Notes: generated from the sequence alone by a model not told the origin. Positions 1-8,399 are shown, counted from the first letter of the stretch. The stretch is 64,000 bases of DNA from Escherichia coli (GCF_002854065.1 NZ_CP024147.1); one strand, 5' to 3'. Numbers and translations are program-made.

Positions 1-451
1 CGGTGGTACGGTATGTCATGAAGACATCTTTCTGACTCCAGGTATCGCCACCAAATTCTGGCAACATATCAGTCCATGAACCAATGTCATAGCCGACACC
101 GTAGTTACGGCCATAGTCCAGAGAGCCAAATTCACTAATTTTTAAACCAGCATAGGCCAGACGGGTCTTGTTGCCGCGCGAGCCGTTGGCTTCATCGTTA
201 TAGCCTTTAAAATCATATTCCCAGTGACCAAAACCAATCATTTGATCATTGATTTGCGTTTCTCCTTTAAAGCCGAGACGGGCATAAGTTTTATCACCAT
301 CGTCACGCTTATCATCAGTAAAATAACGTAGAGCGGTAACCTTGCCATAAAGGTCGAGTTTATTACCATCCTTGTTATAGACTTCGGCAGCGTGTGCTAC
401 GTTCGCAGCTAACAAACCAGTTACAACCACCGCAACTATTTTTAATTTCAT
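1..451 (-). CDS. Outer-membrane porin of the OmpC/OmpN family, N-terminal ~150 codons; the gene runs off the window start
   Basis: Minus-strand translation from the ATG at 451 gives [38 protein letters not shown]...LDYGRNYGV...PEFGGDTW with no stop down to position 1. This is a typical porin signal peptide and first beta-strands. It is absent from the ORF track only because it has no stop inside the window. Confidence 0.6.
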
Positions 452-679
452 TTAACAGAATCCTTTTAATTATCGTTAAACGTATTTTCTAAACGAATTT
501 TAAACGGCGTCATTTATAAACGACATACTGTTTTTAAATTAGAATGGTGATTAAAAACAATGAGAAAAATAGATGAAATAATATTATTTATCGATATGTG
601 ATCGAAGTCTAAATGAGATATAAGGTGAATTACTGGTATTTGAAATTTATTTTTTAATATTGTCGGAGTTTATCTGATT

Positions 680-706
680 AATTGCCGGGCCGTAGACCCG
701 GCAATT
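680..706. terminator. Perfect 10-bp-stem hairpin immediately downstream of the yddG stop; possible terminator
   Basis: aattgccggg / cccggcaatt inverted repeat with a 7-nt loop, followed on the plus strand by a T-rich stretch. Lies between the convergent ends of yddG and the porin promoter region. Confidence 0.3.
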
Positions 707-709
707 ATT

Positions 710-1591
710 TTAGCCACGACGTGTCGCCAGCCAGCAGAGCAGGGAACCGCCGCAGACCATCAGCGCGCCTTGCCAGAACGAGAACGACAGCGGGGCGCTG
801 AGCAGCACGGCTGCAAGCGCTGAGGAAAGTACGGGCGTAAAATACGAACCTACCGCCATAATGGTGACGTTGCCATGCAATATACCGACATTCCATGCAG
901 CATAAGCAAATCCTAAGGTAAATGCCGCAGAGATGAGTTTAATTATGACGGGCATGCTAAATACCATTTCTGGTTGTGGCGTGAGAAAATAGTAAACCCA
1001 CAGACTTGCTCCCGTTAGCAGGACAAAAACGGTAATTCCGTTAAATCCGCGTGCGTATTTATTCGTTACTGTGCAGTAGGCTGCCCAGATAAACGCACCA
1101 ATGAACGCCAGGAAATAACTCAATGGGCTGGTGGTGATATTATTGATGATTTCATCATAATGTAACCCATTGTCACCGCCTAACACCCAGCAGACGCCGA
1201 CGAGGGCTAATAATAATCCTGGTACAATCAGCCAGTTGGTTTTCTGACCATTAAACAGAATGGCAAAGAGAATTGTCAGGCTGGGCCACAGATAGTTCAC
1301 CATACCCACTTCAATCGCCTGATGACGGGTCGCCGCATACCCTAAGGAAAGCGCCAGACAGATTTCATAGCTGACGAATAACAGACTCCCGGCGAGTAAA
1401 TAGCCTTTCGGGATTTGCCGAATACGCGGAAATCCAACCGTGAAGATTAACAGCAGCCCGCTTAATGAATAGATAGCAGCTGCGCCACCGACCGGGCCGA
1501 GCCCCTCACTGACACCGCGAATCAATCCTACCATCGTGCTCCACAGGACGATCGCTATTAGCCCTATGAGCGTTGCTTTTTGTCGTGTCAT
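710..1591 (-). CDS. yddG: Aromatic amino acid / metabolite exporter, DMT (EamA) family
   Basis: 293-aa ORF, strongly hydrophobic with about 10 predicted TM segments; position divergent from fdnG as in K-12. Confidence 0.85.
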   Translation of the reverse strand: MTRQKATLIGLIAIVLWSTMVGLIRGVSEGLGPVGGAAAIYSLSGLLLIFTVGFPRIRQIPKGYLLAGSLLFVSYEICLALSLGYAATRHQAIEVGMVNYLWPSLTILFAILFNGQKTNWLIVPGLLLALVGVCWVLGGDNGLHYDEIINNITTSPLSYFLAFIGAFIWAAYCTVTNKYARGFNGITVFVLLTGASLWVYYFLTPQPEMVFSMPVIIKLISAAFTLGFAYAAWNVGILHGNVTIMAVGSYFTPVLSSALAAVLLSAPLSFSFWQGALMVCGGSLLCWLATRRG

Positions 1592-1744
1592 GCTCGCTGT
1601 TTTGTCTCTCTTGCCGTTAAAAATTAAGCTGAATTTTATAGCATTTTTTTAACTGGCCTGTCAGGCAGTGGTGCGTTTTTCTACCGCTATTGAGGTAGGT
1701 CAATTTGCGCAGGCGGATTATTTTGTGGCAAACACGTGTTCTTT

Positions 1745-1758
1745 TTGATTTCGCGCAA
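1745..1758 (+). promoter_or_regulatory. Putative FNR half-site-type box (TTGAT-N4-CGCAA) upstream of fdnG
   Basis: ttgatttcgcgcaa lies about 70 bp upstream of the fdnG ATG. fdnGHI is known to be anaerobically induced via FNR and NarL; the match to TTGAT-N4-ATCAA is partial. Confidence 0.3.
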
Positions 1759-1822
1759 AAAGATTCAGAATTTTACTGTTAGTTTCCTCGCGCAGTAATA
1801 CCCCTGAAAAAAGAGGAAAGCA

Positions 1823-4800
1823 ATGGACGTCAGTCGCAGACAATTTTTTAAAATCTGCGCGGGCGGTATGGCTGGAACAACAGTAGCGGCATTGGGCTTT
1901 GCCCCGAAGCAAGCACTGGCTCAGGCGCGAAACTACAAATTATTACGCGCTAAAGAGATCCGTAACACCTGCACATACTGTTCCGTAGGTTGCGGGCTAT
2001 TGATGTATAGCCTGGGTGATGGCGCGAAAAACGCCAGAGAAGCGATTTATCACATTGAAGGTGACCCGGATCATCCGGTAAGCCGTGGTGCGCTGTGCCC
2101 GAAAGGGGCCGGTTTGCTGGATTACGTCAACAGCGAAAACCGTCTGCGCTACCCGGAATATCGTGCGCCAGGTTCTGACAAATGGCAGCGCATTAGCTGG
2201 GAAGAAGCATTCTCCCGTATTGCGAAGCTGATGAAAGCTGACCGTGACGCTAACTTTATTGAAAAGAACGAGCAGGGTGTAACGGTAAACCGTTGGCTTT
2301 CTACCGGTATGCTGTGTGCCTCCGGTGCCAGCAACGAAACCGGGATGCTGACCCAGAAATTTGCCCGCTCCCTCGGGATGCTGGCGGTAGACAACCAGGC
2401 GCGCGTCTGACACGGACCAACGGTAGCAAGTCTTGCTCCAACATTTGGTCGCGGTGCGATGACCAACCACTGGGTGGATATCAAAAACGCTAACGTCGTG
2501 ATGGTGATGGGCGGTAACGCTGCTGAAGCGCATCCCGTCGGTTTCCGCTGGGCGATGGAAGCGAAAAACAACAACGATGCAACCTTGATCGTTGTCGATC
2601 CCCGTTTTACGCGTACCGCATCTGTGGCGGATATCTACGCGCCTATTCGTTCCGGTACGGACATTACGTTCCTGTCTGGCGTTTTGCGCTACCTGATCGA
2701 AAACAACAAAATCAACGCCGAATACGTTAAGCATTACACCAACGCCAGCCTGCTGGTGCGTGATGATTTTGCTTTCGAAGACGGTCTGTTCAGCGGCTAC
2801 GACGCTGAAAAACGCCAGTACGATAAGTCGTCCTGGAACTATCAGTTCGATGAAAACGGCTATGCAAAACGCGATGAAACACTGACTCATCCGCGCTGTG
2901 TGTGGAACCTGCTGAAAGAGCACGTTTCCCGCTACACGCCGGACGTCGTTGAAAACATCTGCGGTACGCCAAAAGCCGACTTCCTGAAAGTGTGTGAAGT
3001 GCTGGCCTCCACCAGCGCACCGGATCGCACAACCACCTTCCTGTACGCGCTGGGCTGGACGCAGCACACCGTGGGAGCGCAGAACATCCGTACTATGGCG
3101 ATGATCCAGTTGCTGCTCGGTAACATGGGTATGGCCGGTGGCGGCGTGAACGCATTGCGTGGTCACTCCAACATTCAGGGGCTGACTGACTTAGGCCTGC
3201 TCTCTACCAGCCTGCCAGGTTATCTGACGCTGCCGTCAGAAAAACAGGTTGATTTGCAGTCGTATCTGGAAGCGAACACGCCGAAAGCGACGCTGGCTGA
3301 TCAGGTGAACTACTGGAGCAACTATCCGAAGTTCTTCGTTAGCCTGATGAAATCTTTCTATGGCGATGCCGCGCAGAAAGAGAACAACTGGGGCTATGAC
3401 TGGCTGCCGAAGTGGGACCAGACCTACGACGTCATCAAGTATTTCAACATGATGGATGAAGGCAAAGTCACCGGTTATTTCTGCCAGGGCTTTAACCCGG
3501 TTGCGTCCTTCCCGGACAAAAACAAAGTGGTGAGCTGCCTGAGCAAGCTGAAGTACATGGTGGTTATCGATCCGCTGGTGACTGAAACCTCTACCTTCTG
3601 GCAGAACCACGGCGAGTCGAACGATGTCGATCCGGCGTCTATTCAGACTGAAGTATTCCGTCTGCCTTCGACCTGCTTTGCTGAAGAGGATGGTTCTATC
3701 GCTAACTCCGGTCGCTGGTTGCAGTGGCACTGGAAAGGTCAGGACGCGCCGGGCGAAGCGCGTAACGACGGCGAAATTCTGGCGGGTATCTACCATCATC
3801 TGCGCGAGTTGTACCAGGCCGAAGGTGGTAAAGGCGTAGAACCGCTGATGAAGATGAGCTGGAACTACAAGCAGCCGCACGAACCGCAATCTGACGAAGT
3901 AGCTAAAGAGAACAACGGCTATGCGCTGGAAGATCTCTATGATGCTAATGGCGTGCTGATTGCGAAGAAAGGTCAGTTGCTGAGTAGCTTTGCGCATCTG
4001 CGTGATGACGGTACAACCGCATCTTCTTGCTGGATCTACACCGGTAGCTGGACAGAGCAGGGCAACCAGATGGCTAACCGCGATAACTCCGACCCGTCTG
4101 GTCTGGGGAATACGCTGGGATGGGCCTGGGCGTGGCCGCTCAACCGTCGCGTGCTGTACAACCGTGCTTCGGCGGATATCAACGGTAAACCGTGGGATCC
4201 GAAACGGATGCTGATCCAGTGGAACGGCAGCAAGTGGACGGGTAACGATATTCCTGACTTCGGCAATGCCGCACCGGGTACGCCAACCGGGCCGTTTATC
4301 ATGCAGCCGGAAGGGATGGGACGCCTGTTTGCCATCAACAAAATGGCGGAAGGTCCGTTCCCGGAACACTACGAGCCGATTGAAACGCCGCTGGGCACTA
4401 ACCCGCTGCATCCGAACGTGGTGTCTAACCCGGTTGTTCGTCTGTATGAACAAGACGCACTGCGGATGGGTAAAAAAGAGCAGTTCCCGTATGTGGGTAC
4501 GACCTATCGTCTGACCGAGCACTTCCACACCTGGACCAAGCACGCCTTGCTCAACGCAATTGCTCAGCCGGAACAGTTTGTGGAAATCAGCGAAACGCTG
4601 GCGGCGGCGAAAGGCATTAATAATGGCGATCGTGTCACTGTCTCCAGCAAGCGTGGATTTATCCGCGCGGTGGCTGTGGTAACGCGCCGTCTGAAGCCGC
4701 TGAATGTAAACGGTCAGCAGGTTGAAACGGTGGGTATTCCAATCCACTGGGGCTTTGAGGGTGTCGCGCGTAAAGGTTATATCGCTAACACTCTGACGCC

Positions 4801-5767: not shown

Positions 5768-6413
5768 GTCGAAAATGATTGTGCGCACCAAATTTATTGA
5801 TCGCGCCTGTCACTGGACCGTGGTGATTTGCTTCTTCCTGGTGGCGCTGTCCGGGATTTCGTTCTTCTTCCCGACGCTGCAATGGCTGACGCAAACCTTC
5901 GGTACGCCGCAGATGGGACGTATTTTGCACCCATTCTTCGGCATTGCGATTTTCGTCGCACTGATGTTTATGTTTGTGCGTTTTGTGCATCACAACATCC
6001 CGGATAAGAAAGATATTCCGTGGCTGTTGAACATTGTCGAAGTATTAAAAGGCAATGAGCACAAAGTGGCGGATGTCGGTAAGTACAACGCCGGGCAAAA
6101 GATGATGTTCTGGTCGATCATGAGCATGATTTTCGTGCTGTTGGTGACCGGGGTGATTATCTGGCGTCCGTACTTTGCGCAGTACTTCCCGATGCAGGTT
6201 GTCCGTTATAGCCTGCTGATCCACGCGGCTGCCGGTATCATCCTGATCCACGCCATCCTGATCCATATGTATATGGCATTCTGGGTGAAAGGATCGATTA
6301 AAGGGATGATCGAAGGGAATGTGAGCCGTCTCTGGGCGAAGAAACACCATCCGCGCTGGTATCGTGAAATCGAGAAGGCAGAAGCGAAAAAAGAGAGTGA
6401 AGAAGGGATATAA
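5760..6413 (+). CDS. fdnI: Formate dehydrogenase-N gamma subunit (cytochrome b556)
   Basis: Start chosen at ATG 5760 ([19 protein letters not shown]...), giving 217 aa. It overlaps the fdnH stop (ATGAGTAA). Hydrophobic, His-rich heme-binding helices. Confidence 0.9.
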
Positions 6414-6434
6414 TCTCTATTGAACTTTAAGCTG

Positions 6435-6466
6435 AAAATGGCGCTGTAAGAAGCGCCATTTTCATA
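6435..6466 (+). terminator. Rho-independent terminator of fdnGHI
   Basis: aaatggcgc-tgtaagaa-gcgccattt hairpin followed by ttcat T-run, 22 bp after the fdnI stop. Confidence 0.55.
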
Positions 6467-6469
6467 TTG

Positions 6470-6600
6470 TAGACAACGTAGGCTTTGTTCATGCCGGATG
6501 CGGCGTGAACGCCTTATCCGGCCTACAAACCGTTCAAATCCAATAGATTGCAGTGAACATGTAGGCCTGATAAGCGTAGAGCATCAGGCAATGTTGCATT
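6470..6600. repeat. REP/BIME-type extragenic palindromic repeats
   Basis: gccggatgcggcgtgaacgccttatccggcctac and gtaggcctgataagcgtagagcatcaggc are classic REP consensus-like palindromes in inverted orientation. Confidence 0.6.
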
Positions 6601-6640
6601 TGTCATCAGTTTCAAATGGCGCTTTATAAGGTGCCATTTT

Positions 6641-6925
6641 TTATTGCGTAACCAGACGGCGTAATCGCGACACATCCACCGTTTTTTCAGCCTCTGCCAG
6701 ACTCCAGGCGTTTTGCAGATTCAGCCACATTTGCGGCGAACTGCCGATCACCACGGAAAGTTTAATTGCCATTTCTGGCGTCAAAGCTGCTTTTCCGGTC
6801 AGCAATCGGCTTGCCGTTGAGGGCGCAATTTCCATTGCTCTGGCAAACTCGCGCAGGCTGACATTAAGTTCGTCCAGTGATTCCTGAATAATGTCCCCCG
6901 GGCGGGGATGATTGGCCATTTTCAT
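6641..6925 (-). CDS. yddM: HigA-like HTH (XRE-family) antitoxin-type regulator
   Basis: 94-aa ORF; HTH region [34 protein letters not shown]. Start ATG overlaps the stop of the upstream toxin ORF (ATGA). Confidence 0.8.
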
Positions 6926-7203
6926 CAGTGATAGTCCTCGTAATCCAGTATGTATGCATCGCCATTGACGAATTCAAATGTGATTCGCCAGTTGCCCGAG
7001 ACAGATATCGCCCAAATTCCATCGCGATCGCCGCTTAACGGGTGTAGTCGGTAACCGGGCATATCGATATCAGCAAGACAGCTTGCTGCATCAATCACAG
7101 CGAGTCGGTGGCGTAATCGTTTGACTTGCGTCGGTATAACGCCGGAGGTTTTGCCGAGAAGAAACAAGTCACGCAATCCCTTGTGTCTGAAATTCATTAT
7201 CAT
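6925..7203 (-). CDS. HigB-family (RelE/ParE superfamily) mRNA-interferase toxin, intact 92-aa ORF
   Basis: [22 protein letters not shown]...[40 protein letters not shown] matches my recollection of HigB (plasmid Rts1 killer protein) along its whole length, including the C-terminal GDAYIL-YEDYH. AAGGA ribosome-binding site upstream; toxin-first arrangement typical of higBA. Confidence 0.75.
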
Positions 7204-7215
7204 CTCTTCATCCTT

Positions 7216-7232
7216 GTTCCCTCGAAAGGAAC
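7216..7232. promoter_or_regulatory. Palindrome GTTCC-N7-GGAAC just upstream of the toxin ORF; candidate operator
   Basis: gttccctcgaaaggaac perfect 5-bp inverted repeat 13 bp upstream of the toxin start. Confidence 0.35.
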
Positions 7233-7388
7233 ACTATCACTATTGTTCCGTGCAGCGCAACAAATTTCGCTACGTTTTCGCGAATTGTGAGGGGAAAGAT
7301 GGCGGAGGAAAAGAAGAAGAATGAAATTGCGGAAAGCGTCTCGCAAAACAGGCTGCGACCCGAACATGGGAGTCGCAGCAAAGGCCTC

Positions 7389-8399
7389 TTAGCGACGGAA
7401 ATCAATCACCATACGGGCACGGATTTTGCCTTCTTCCATCTCGGTAAAGATGGTGTTGATGTCCGCTAACGGACGCAGGGCGACTTTCGGCACCACTTTG
7501 CCTTCGGCCGCAAACTGGAAGGCTTCGGTTAGATCCTGGCGCGTGCCGACCAGCGAACCGACCACTTCAATACCATCCAGCACAAGGCGTGGGATGTCCA
7601 GGCTCATAGATTCCAGCGGTAGACCGACAGCCACAACACGACCGCCTGCACGGACAGCATCAACTGCCGAGTTAAACGCCGCTTTAGCTACCGCTGTCAC
7701 CACCGCGGCGTGAGCGCCACCGGTTTTATCCTGCACAATTTTGGCGGCGTCTTCGGTGCGTGAGTTAATCGCTAAATCTGCGCCCATTTCGGTTGCCAGT
7801 TTTAACTGCTCATCATTGACATCAATGGCGATCACTTTCGCGTTAAAGACATTCTTCGCGTATTGCAGGGCGAGGTTACCCAGACCGCCAAGACCGTAGA
7901 TAGCAATCCACTGACCGGGACGAATTTTTGACAGTTTAACGGCTTTGTAGGTGGTGACCCCCGCACAGGTAATGCTGCTGGCCGCCGCCGAGTCCAGACC
8001 ATCTGGCACTTTTACCGCGTAATCGGCGACCACGATGCACTCTTCCGCCATCCCGCCATCAACGCTGTATCCGGCATTTTTAACTGAACGGCAGAGCGTT
8101 TCGTTACCACTGTTACAGTATTCGCAATGACCGCATCCTTCGTAAAACCACGCCACGCTGGCACGATCGCCTGGTTTTAATGAAGTAACACCAGGGCCAA
8201 CTTCTGCCACCACACCGATGCCTTCATGGCCCAGAATTACGCCAGTTTTGTCACCAAAATCGCCATTCTTAACATGAAGATCGGTATGACATACACCACA
8301 ACACTCCATTTTCAGCAGGGCTTCGCCATGTTTCAGTGAGCGCAGTGTTTTATCCGTAACGTCAACATGATGATCCTTCGTAACAACTGCAGCCTTCAT
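7389..8399 (-). CDS. adhP: Zn-dependent alcohol dehydrogenase, propanol-preferring
   Basis: Start taken at [11 protein letters not shown] (336 aa). GHEGIGVV and CGHCEYC zinc-ADH motifs. Confidence 0.9.

Follow-up and report, generated by a model that had tools for sequence, protein, structure and literature searches.

Work on Escherichia coli K-12 treats YddM as a transcription factor, for which ChIP-exo sites (PMC6237786) and genetic interactions (PMC9283627) have been described. In the window analyzed here, which is the whole stretch of 64 kb of E. coli DNA, a reading frame of 92 codons lies directly upstream of yddM, and this arrangement raises the question of whether yddM encodes a lone regulator or the antitoxin of a complete toxin-antitoxin operon. 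An earlier note on this DNA had proposed the latter and had suspected that the toxin gene was novel or under-annotated. We analyzed the two genes, their upstream region and their distribution among related genomes, and compared the locus with toxin-antitoxin systems that carry similar names.

The toxin gene and its antitoxin partner

In the window, fdnH and fdnI are located on the plus strand, while yddM, adhP and maeA are located on the minus strand. The toxin ORF lies on the minus strand between yddM and adhP, with its ATG at 7203 and its TGA stop codon at 6927..6925. The features of the locus, in the coordinates of the window, are the following:

6614..6639, no strand assigned: hairpin right after the yddM stop codon, between the convergent genes fdnI and yddM; terminator-like site on the plus strand
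6641..6925, minus strand: yddM, the higA antitoxin gene, 94 aa, with an N-terminal XRE-type HTH (TIGR02607, PDB identity)
6925..6929, minus strand: TGATG junction, in which the toxin stop and the yddM start share base 6925 (read from the sequence)
6925..7203, minus strand: intact higB-type gene for a toxin of 92 aa, predicted to be a ribosome-dependent mRNA endonuclease (ORF list, PF05015, Rts1 HigB alignment, RefSeq)
7211..7215, minus strand: Shine-Dalgarno sequence AAGGA, 7 nt before the higB ATG (read from the sequence; AGG/GGA kept in most orthologues)
7215..7233, no strand assigned: proximal operator O2, perfect palindrome TGTTCC-N7-GGAACA, putatively bound by YddM
7231..7243, minus strand: putative -10 region of the promoter, which lies between the operators and overlaps them, gene-strand sequence ATAGTGATAGTGT
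7244..7262, no strand assigned: distal operator O1, imperfect palindrome, TGTTCC-N7-GCAACA on the plus strand (direct-repeat family, pattern match)
7352..7379, minus strand: adhP terminator hairpin, the upstream limit of the hig leader (terminator scan)

The toxin is similar to HigB over its entire length. The Pfam profile PF05015 (HigB-like_toxin) matches residues 4-92 with E=1.5e-17, covering model positions 2-91 of 91, and Rts1 HigB (PDB 4mct_B) aligns with 92/92 residues of the toxin without a gap, 52/92 of them being identical (56.5%; E=8e-32). The Rts1 HigB structures 4mct, 4px8 and 4ypb are all ungapped over 92 residues with E about 1e-31; in the PDB ranking, matches 1-5 are HigB and match 6 is the HigB-like GraT. 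Because the alignment to the solved HigB chains 4mct_B, 4px8_A and 4ypb is ungapped over 92/92 residues at 56.5% identity, the toxin is predicted to adopt a RelE-type microbial RNase fold. In the NCBIfam scan of the toxin, the only match was a sub-threshold one to RelE_StbE (17.8 bits, cutoff 27.9).

According to the alignment, the toxin keeps His54, Asn71, Arg73, Asp90, Tyr91 and His92 at the positions of Rts1 HigB. His54, Arg73, Asp90, Tyr91 and His92 are also invariant in the 11 orthologues compared, i.e., the toxin of the window, seven from Citrobacter, two from Buttiauxella and one from Cedecea. In the growth and kinetic assays of Schureck et al. (PMC5027501), His54, Asp90, Tyr91 and His92 were critical for HigB, and the contribution of Arg73 in Rts1 HigB was about 11-fold (PMC5027501). 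The toxin differs from Rts1 HigB at two ribosome- or mRNA-proximal basic residues, Lys57 and Arg48, which are replaced by Ser and Met, respectively. The backbone of Lys57 reads the second A-site nucleotide in Rts1 HigB, and single alanine swaps at Lys57 and Arg48 did not abolish its toxicity (PMC5027501). Our literature search found no experiment on growth arrest or mRNA cleavage by this toxin, nor one on its neutralization by YddM.

The product of the downstream gene matches the NCBIfam equivalog TIGR02607 (antidote_HigA) with 93.7 bits at a cutoff of 47.7, and is identical at 94/94 residues to PDB 2icp_A and 2ICT, entitled 'antitoxin higa'. Because of this identity to the solved 2ICP/2ICT, YddM is taken to be a folded XRE-HTH dimer. 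The crystal structure of CFT073 HigA was reportedly presented by Arbing et al. in 2010. The entries 2ICP and 2ICT represent YddM of E. coli CFT073 (PMC3968373), and this structure has been described as a HigA fold (PMC6393540, PMC6987408). Rts1 HigA (4mcx_A) matches YddM as well (E=1.3e-18).

At the junction of the two genes, which reads CAC-TGA-TGAAAATGG, the overlap amounts to one base. The TGATG junction was found in 13 of the 15 orthologous loci in which both genes were read, the other two having an ATGA overlap, and it is consistent with translational coupling of the toxin and yddM. A true 4-base ATGA overlap of toxin and antitoxin genes is seen in Citrobacter sp. Awk 4 and NCU1, around 2776-2782 of the extracted loci. 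The toxins of these two strains have 93 aa, with an additional Ala following the catalytic C-terminal His92; the C-terminus of Rts1 HigB is sensitive to change (PMC5027501).

The hairpin at 6614..6639 is likely the end of the operon, its role for yddM being suggested by its position. On the other side, the adhP terminator hairpin is conserved in toxin-bearing and toxin-less alleles. In the fdnI-yddM intergenic region, positions 6487-6568 of the window gave sub-threshold Rfam matches to naRNA4 (38.2 bits, threshold 59.5) and ES036 (33.2 bits, threshold 37.6), which were taken to be a REP-type repeat; the Rfam scan of 6300-7600 yielded only such sub-threshold REP-like matches, all of them outside the operon. 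This intergenic region has a length of 406 bp in K-12 versus 227 bp in the window, i.e., it is ~180 bp longer in K-12.

Most of the description in the earlier note agrees with these results. An intact 92-codon HigB-family ORF is located upstream of yddM, on the minus strand, and is supported by both the profile search (PF05015) and the 92/92 alignment to Rts1 HigB; its C-terminal signature is as described, and the toxin appears undamaged, all of its catalytic residues being retained. The assignment of yddM as a HigA-like XRE-family HTH protein was likewise correct, and gene order, coupling, the HigA partner and an operator palindrome together make up the complete toxin-first type II module that had been proposed. 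What had been read as a 4-base ATGA overlap with yddM, however, is the one-base TGATG overlap at 6925.

Operators, promoter and predicted mode of action

The palindrome GTTCC-N7-GGAAC that the earlier note had placed just upstream of the toxin gene is present at 7216-7232, but it is one of two sites and extends a base further on each side. The full palindrome O2 ends 11 nt before the higB ATG and occurs once in the 64 kb window, versus 0.05 occurrences expected by chance. The second site, O1, reads TGTTGC-N7-GGAACA in gene orientation, and the spacing between O1 and O2 is 29 bp from start to start (direct-repeat family D2). The degenerate pattern TGTTSC-N7-GSAACA matches only O1 and O2 in the window, versus 0.01 matches expected, a count that is post hoc since the pattern was derived from the hig locus itself. 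The main support for the operators therefore comes from their conservation across genera and not from the window count.

To assess this conservation, 15 upstream regions from Escherichia, Citrobacter, Buttiauxella and Cedecea were aligned. Both arms of O2 are invariant in the 15 sequences from the four genera, while the 7-nt spacer varies, and in O1 the blocks TGTTGCG and G(G/A)AACA show little or no variation among the same genera. Since the four arms are constant or nearly constant while both 7-nt spacers and the surrounding leader are free to vary, O1 and O2 can be regarded as a phylogenetic footprint.

A scan of 6500-7450 for consensus sigma-70 promoters revealed no canonical promoter, and the promoter and the transcription start were therefore placed on the basis of conservation and analogy with Rts1. 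The 10-bp gap between O1 and O2 contains a conserved block, TGnTA..T, which is read as a putative extended -10 element (TGnTAGTGT); in the 15-region alignment, there is no variation at the T, G, T and T of TGnT....T. In Rts1, HigA dimers bind the hig operators, which overlap the -35 and -10 regions (PMC12266136). O1 and O2 would, by analogy, allow YddM to repress the operon that encodes it.

The resemblance to the Rts1 HigBA system (Proteus vulgaris; PDB 4MCT/4MCX, 4YPB, 9CHL) includes further properties of the operon. The Rts1 system is likewise toxin-first, its toxin has 92 aa and identical catalytic residues, and Rts1 HigA carries an N-terminal XRE-HTH like YddM. The Rts1-type hig promoter, which was read on an IncT plasmid, consists of an imperfect distal and a perfect proximal palindrome, as is the case here; the spacing of the palindromes is 30 bp in the Rts1-type promoter and 29 bp in the window, and the proximal palindrome ends 11 nt before the ATG in both. 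However, the half-sites of the Rts1-type promoter are GTATTACA/TGTAATAC with a 5-nt spacer, whereas those of the window are TGTTCC/GGAACA with a 7-nt spacer. The antitoxins also differ in length (104 aa for Rts1 HigA versus 94 aa for YddM), and Rts1 is plasmid-borne, whereas the pair in the window is chromosomal and occupies a fixed site between adhP and fdnI.

Much more distant than Rts1 is the GraT-GraA system of Pseudomonas putida (PDB 6F8S), in which the toxin is HigB-like (E=3.8e-7) and the folded antitoxin is HigA-like (E=1.8e-11). The 92-aa toxin of the window lacks the disordered N-terminal extension of GraT. It has been reported that GraT displaces GraA from DNA (PMC12266136).

Taken together, the two genes and their upstream region very probably represent an intact and working chromosomal HigBA type II operon of the Rts1 HigBA type. 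By analogy with Rts1, HigB would enter the ribosomal A site and cut mRNA by acid-base catalysis involving His54, Arg73, Asp90, Tyr91 and His92, and the YddM (HigA) dimer would bind HigB and neutralize it. The YddM dimer, alone or together with HigB, would repress the operon via the two TGTTSC-N7-GSAACA operators, which are predicted to flank and overlap the -10 region and the transcription start, and the TGATG overlap would tie translation of the antitoxin to that of the toxin. For this module we infer toxicity, neutralization, DNA binding and the transcription start from the analogous system.

Distribution, selection and loss of the toxin

Among complete E. coli genomes, yddM is present in 5,412 of 5,426, and the toxin gene in 1,328 of 5,426 (24%). 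The E. coli copies of the toxin gene are always found at this one chromosomal site with 95-100% DNA identity, and the toxin is annotated as a CDS in every entry examined. Toxin carriers among the matches listed include 536, Nissle 1917, NRG857c, ST131 isolates and 042. About 75% of the complete genomes, K-12 included, have deletion alleles without the toxin gene in which YddM is kept, mostly with the operators; the toxin-less genomes retain the identical YddM protein WP_000781370.1, and the main K-12 and O111 toxin-less alleles keep both operators. The toxin is dispensable, since three quarters of the E. coli genomes do without it.

Two E. coli genomes show individual changes in the pair. In E. 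coli E1 from poultry, an in-frame 9-nt deletion in the toxin gene (locus extract 400-669) removes Gln26-Val27-Lys28, and the resulting toxin is annotated as the 89-aa protein WP_000605680.1. E. coli E6474 belongs to the few genomes lacking an intact yddM, the 5' end of the gene being cut off by insertion of the Tn3-family transposon TnAs1 (locus extract 929-1142).

In E. albertii, Escherichia sp. MOD1-EC7003, E. coli SCPM-O-B-8794 and two Citrobacter species, the pair is flanked by adhP and fdnI. Another ten Citrobacter loci have the pair adjoining fdnI, usually with maeA about 2.2 kb upstream, adhP lying outside the DNA examined. The protein identity of the toxin to the Citrobacter copies is 83-89%, while the copies from Buttiauxella and Cedecea, for which the DNA examined did not extend to adhP, fdnI or maeA flanks, are 62-64% identical. 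In comparison with seven Citrobacter orthologues, dN/dS was 0.04-0.11 for the toxin gene (dS about 1-1.6) and 0.04-0.06 for yddM, with dS about 1-2 for the two genes; for adhP, dN/dS was 0.03 in comparison with two other Citrobacter loci (dS about 1.3-1.5). Because dN/dS is low and synteny is maintained in other species, these comparisons indicate that the hig pair is old, has been passed on together with its neighbourhood and is subject to strong purifying selection.

A plasmid origin of the locus was rejected, as the plasmid homologues are at most 59% identical in a comparison that set aside chromosomes and chromosome fragments filed as plasmids. The PLSDB entries NZ_CP141089.1 (4.94 Mb), NZ_CP134663.1 (4.90 Mb) and NZ_OL790696.1 (4.80 Mb) are whole E. 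coli chromosomes, and such entries give rise to false 'plasmid' matches for the chromosomal hig locus.

These data also bear on the possibility that the module is domesticated or attenuated, with HigB being a weakly toxic or non-toxic passenger and YddM being kept as a transcription factor with other targets. The loss of the toxin in 75% of the E. coli genomes with retention of YddM would agree with this explanation, as would the study of K-12 YddM as a transcription factor (PMC6237786, PMC9283627) and the substitutions Lys57Ser and Arg48Met relative to Rts1 HigB. A non-functional passenger, however, would accumulate damage of the kind seen in a few decayed Citrobacter copies, whereas the toxin gene matches yddM in its low dN/dS (0.04-0.11) and comes near adhP, the catalytic residues are invariant in 11 orthologues from four genera, and both the tight coupling and the operators are conserved. 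We regard a non-functional or attenuated module as improbable and favour a working HigBA operon.

In Citrobacter, the toxin has decayed independently and in different forms. Citrobacter sp. FP75 has a 27-residue toxin remnant beside an intact YddM, the toxin of C. portucalensis A60 is frameshifted, and Citrobacter sp. On2M has a truncated toxin and no detectable YddM.

The toxin-less alleles of E. coli look derived. In MG1655, the gap between yddM and adhP is 145 bp long and contains no HigB-coding sequence, and YddM is 100% identical to that of the window. This K-12-type leader occurs in about 4,081 of the 5,426 genomes and carries TGTTGC-GTAGGAA-GGAACA and TGTTCC-CAGTGAA-GGAACG directly upstream of yddM. 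The leaders were compared using the MG1655 extract 2684-2828, a second K-12-type extract (3328-3472) and positions 6926-7388 of the window. Outside the operators, the K-12-type leader is ~45% identical to the toxin-bearing allele, the flanking genes being 97-98% identical. The deletion in K-12 may have arisen at the microhomology TAATGAA/TGATGAA, or it may begin immediately past O2 and reach almost to the 3' end of the toxin gene; the strong divergence of the K-12 leader beyond its operators hampers the choice between these two readings.

Other toxin-less alleles differ in their operator region. In the allele of O111:NM 08-4377, the O1 segment of 21 bp corresponds exactly to the reverse complement of its K-12 counterpart (TTGTTCCTTCCTACGCAACAA versus TTGTTGCGTAGGAAGGAACAA), which is a small inversion between the palindrome arms; this subtype probably accounts for the 1,061 genomes that fall between 80 and 90% identity. 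The SWHEFF_58 allele lacks 29 bp, i.e., one operator repeat unit including the putative -10 region, and retains a single hybrid site, TGTTGC-N7-GGAACG; the loss looks like a deletion between direct GGAAC repeats. In O157:H7 TR01, a K-12-type O1 half-site is joined directly to the final 46 nt of higB (extract 701-746), and the sequence upstream of the fusion is of the toxin-allele type. TR01 was the only chromosomal partial toxin match among the genomes searched, and another O157 genome, AR-0429, has an ordinary K-12-type allele.

The divergence from E. albertii NBRC 107761 was determined by pairwise comparison of extract 1305-3063 with positions 6641-8399 of the window. The DNA identities are 97.1% for higB and 96.5% for yddM, versus 87.7% for adhP and 88.7% for the leader; at the protein level, the toxins of E. 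coli and E. albertii NBRC 107761 are 100% identical. Since the toxin-antitoxin genes are far less diverged from E. albertii than their flank, these identities suggest an exchange between the species or an unusual constraint. In addition, the toxin has been lost repeatedly from this ancient fixed-site pair, by separate deletions that left the antitoxin unchanged. A possible though rather unlikely explanation is that the toxin-bearing allele is selfish and moves between lineages by homologous recombination, while the orphan YddM provides anti-addiction immunity. The orphan YddM would then be kept against re-invasion or against related plasmid toxins.

Earlier names of the locus and implications

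The HigBA pair at this locus is already annotated and catalogued. RefSeq lists the toxin as WP_000605676.1, 'type II toxin-antitoxin system RelE/ParE family toxin', and yddM as 'HigA family addiction module antitoxin', and the UniProt/RefSeq names for the toxin are 'RelE/ParE family toxin' or 'Killer protein'. The pair of NRG857c is named higB/higA in TADB (TA027334; PMC11205521). Bustamante and Vidal (2020; PMC7232551) described the locus as TA20 'ParE-2/HigA-2' of AIEC NRG857c, which is common to CFT073 and represented by the antitoxin only in K-12 and HS (PMC7232551). The locus tags NRG857_RS07485/07480 were matched to the genes between fdnI and adhP, and the respective toxin is 99% identical to that of the window. 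NRG857c TA20, CFT073 HigA and TADB TA027334 are the same locus, with allelic DNA differences of only 1-2%.

The suspicion of the earlier note that the toxin was novel or under-annotated is refuted, since RefSeq, TADB TA027334 and PMC7232551 already cover the locus and the toxin is listed in RefSeq wherever it is present. This impression can be traced to K-12-centred papers, which still call yddM an orphan transcription factor. The description of yddM in K-12 work as a lone 'uncharacterized regulator' reflects the absence of a toxin gene from this locus in MG1655; the K-12 gene is deleted, and was not overlooked by annotators.

The published names could also suggest that the HigA antitoxin is paired with a gyrase poison of the ParE type, as the gene was placed under 'ParE_toxin Superfamily (cl21503)' and named ParE-2 (PMC7232551), and the RefSeq umbrella name is 'RelE/ParE family toxin'. 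This explanation is highly improbable, given that Pfam reports HigB-like_toxin only, that there is no ParE among the six top PDB matches, and that the toxin shares 56.5% of its residues, over the full length, with the ribonuclease Rts1 HigB and keeps the catalytic residues His54, Arg73, Asp90, Tyr91 and His92. 'ParE' is a CDD superfamily name and not a functional assignment, the TADB name is higB, and 'ParE-2' is a misnomer for a HigB-type protein. That the ORF and the palindrome are chance intergenic features upstream of yddM can be dismissed, because, short as the ORF is and weak as a 5+5 palindrome alone would be, the family and structure matches range from E=1e-17 to 1e-31, orthologues in four genera are under purifying selection, and the operators vary in their spacers but not in their arms.

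The HigBA operon of the window should also be distinguished from the K-12 HigB-HigA system (YgjN-YgjM), which is likewise toxin-first, named HigBA, a member of the RelE superfamily and found in E. coli. YgjN-YgjM, however, is encoded at another locus (fadH-rlmG) and belongs to another lineage, and the HTH is C-terminal in K-12 HigA but N-terminal in CFT073 HigA/YddM (PMC6987408). NRG857c and CFT073 have only an orphan higA at the YgjN-YgjM locus of K-12 (PMC7232551). The CFT073 ΔhigBA mutant of Norton and Mulvey (2012) was considered as a test of the locus studied here and rejected. Their four primers have no 14-mer match in the 64 kb window, and their HigB was reported to be 'truncated' in many ExPEC (Norton and Mulvey, 2012), so that this mutant concerns a different hig locus.

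According to these results, yddM, an orphan transcription factor in K-12 systems studies, is the antitoxin gene of a HigBA module whose toxin gene has been lost in K-12, and the phenotypes and ChIP data of K-12 YddM should be read with the lost toxin partner in mind. For toxin-carrying strains, the analysis provides an explicit operator model with two TGTTSC-N7-GSAACA sites, and the published label 'ParE-2' is corrected to HigB. The remaining interest of the locus lies in its evolutionary pattern, i.e., the repeated loss of the toxin with retention of antitoxin and operators, and the low divergence from E. albertii. The presence/absence polymorphism at a fixed site would offer a convenient natural system for examining the anti-addiction idea.
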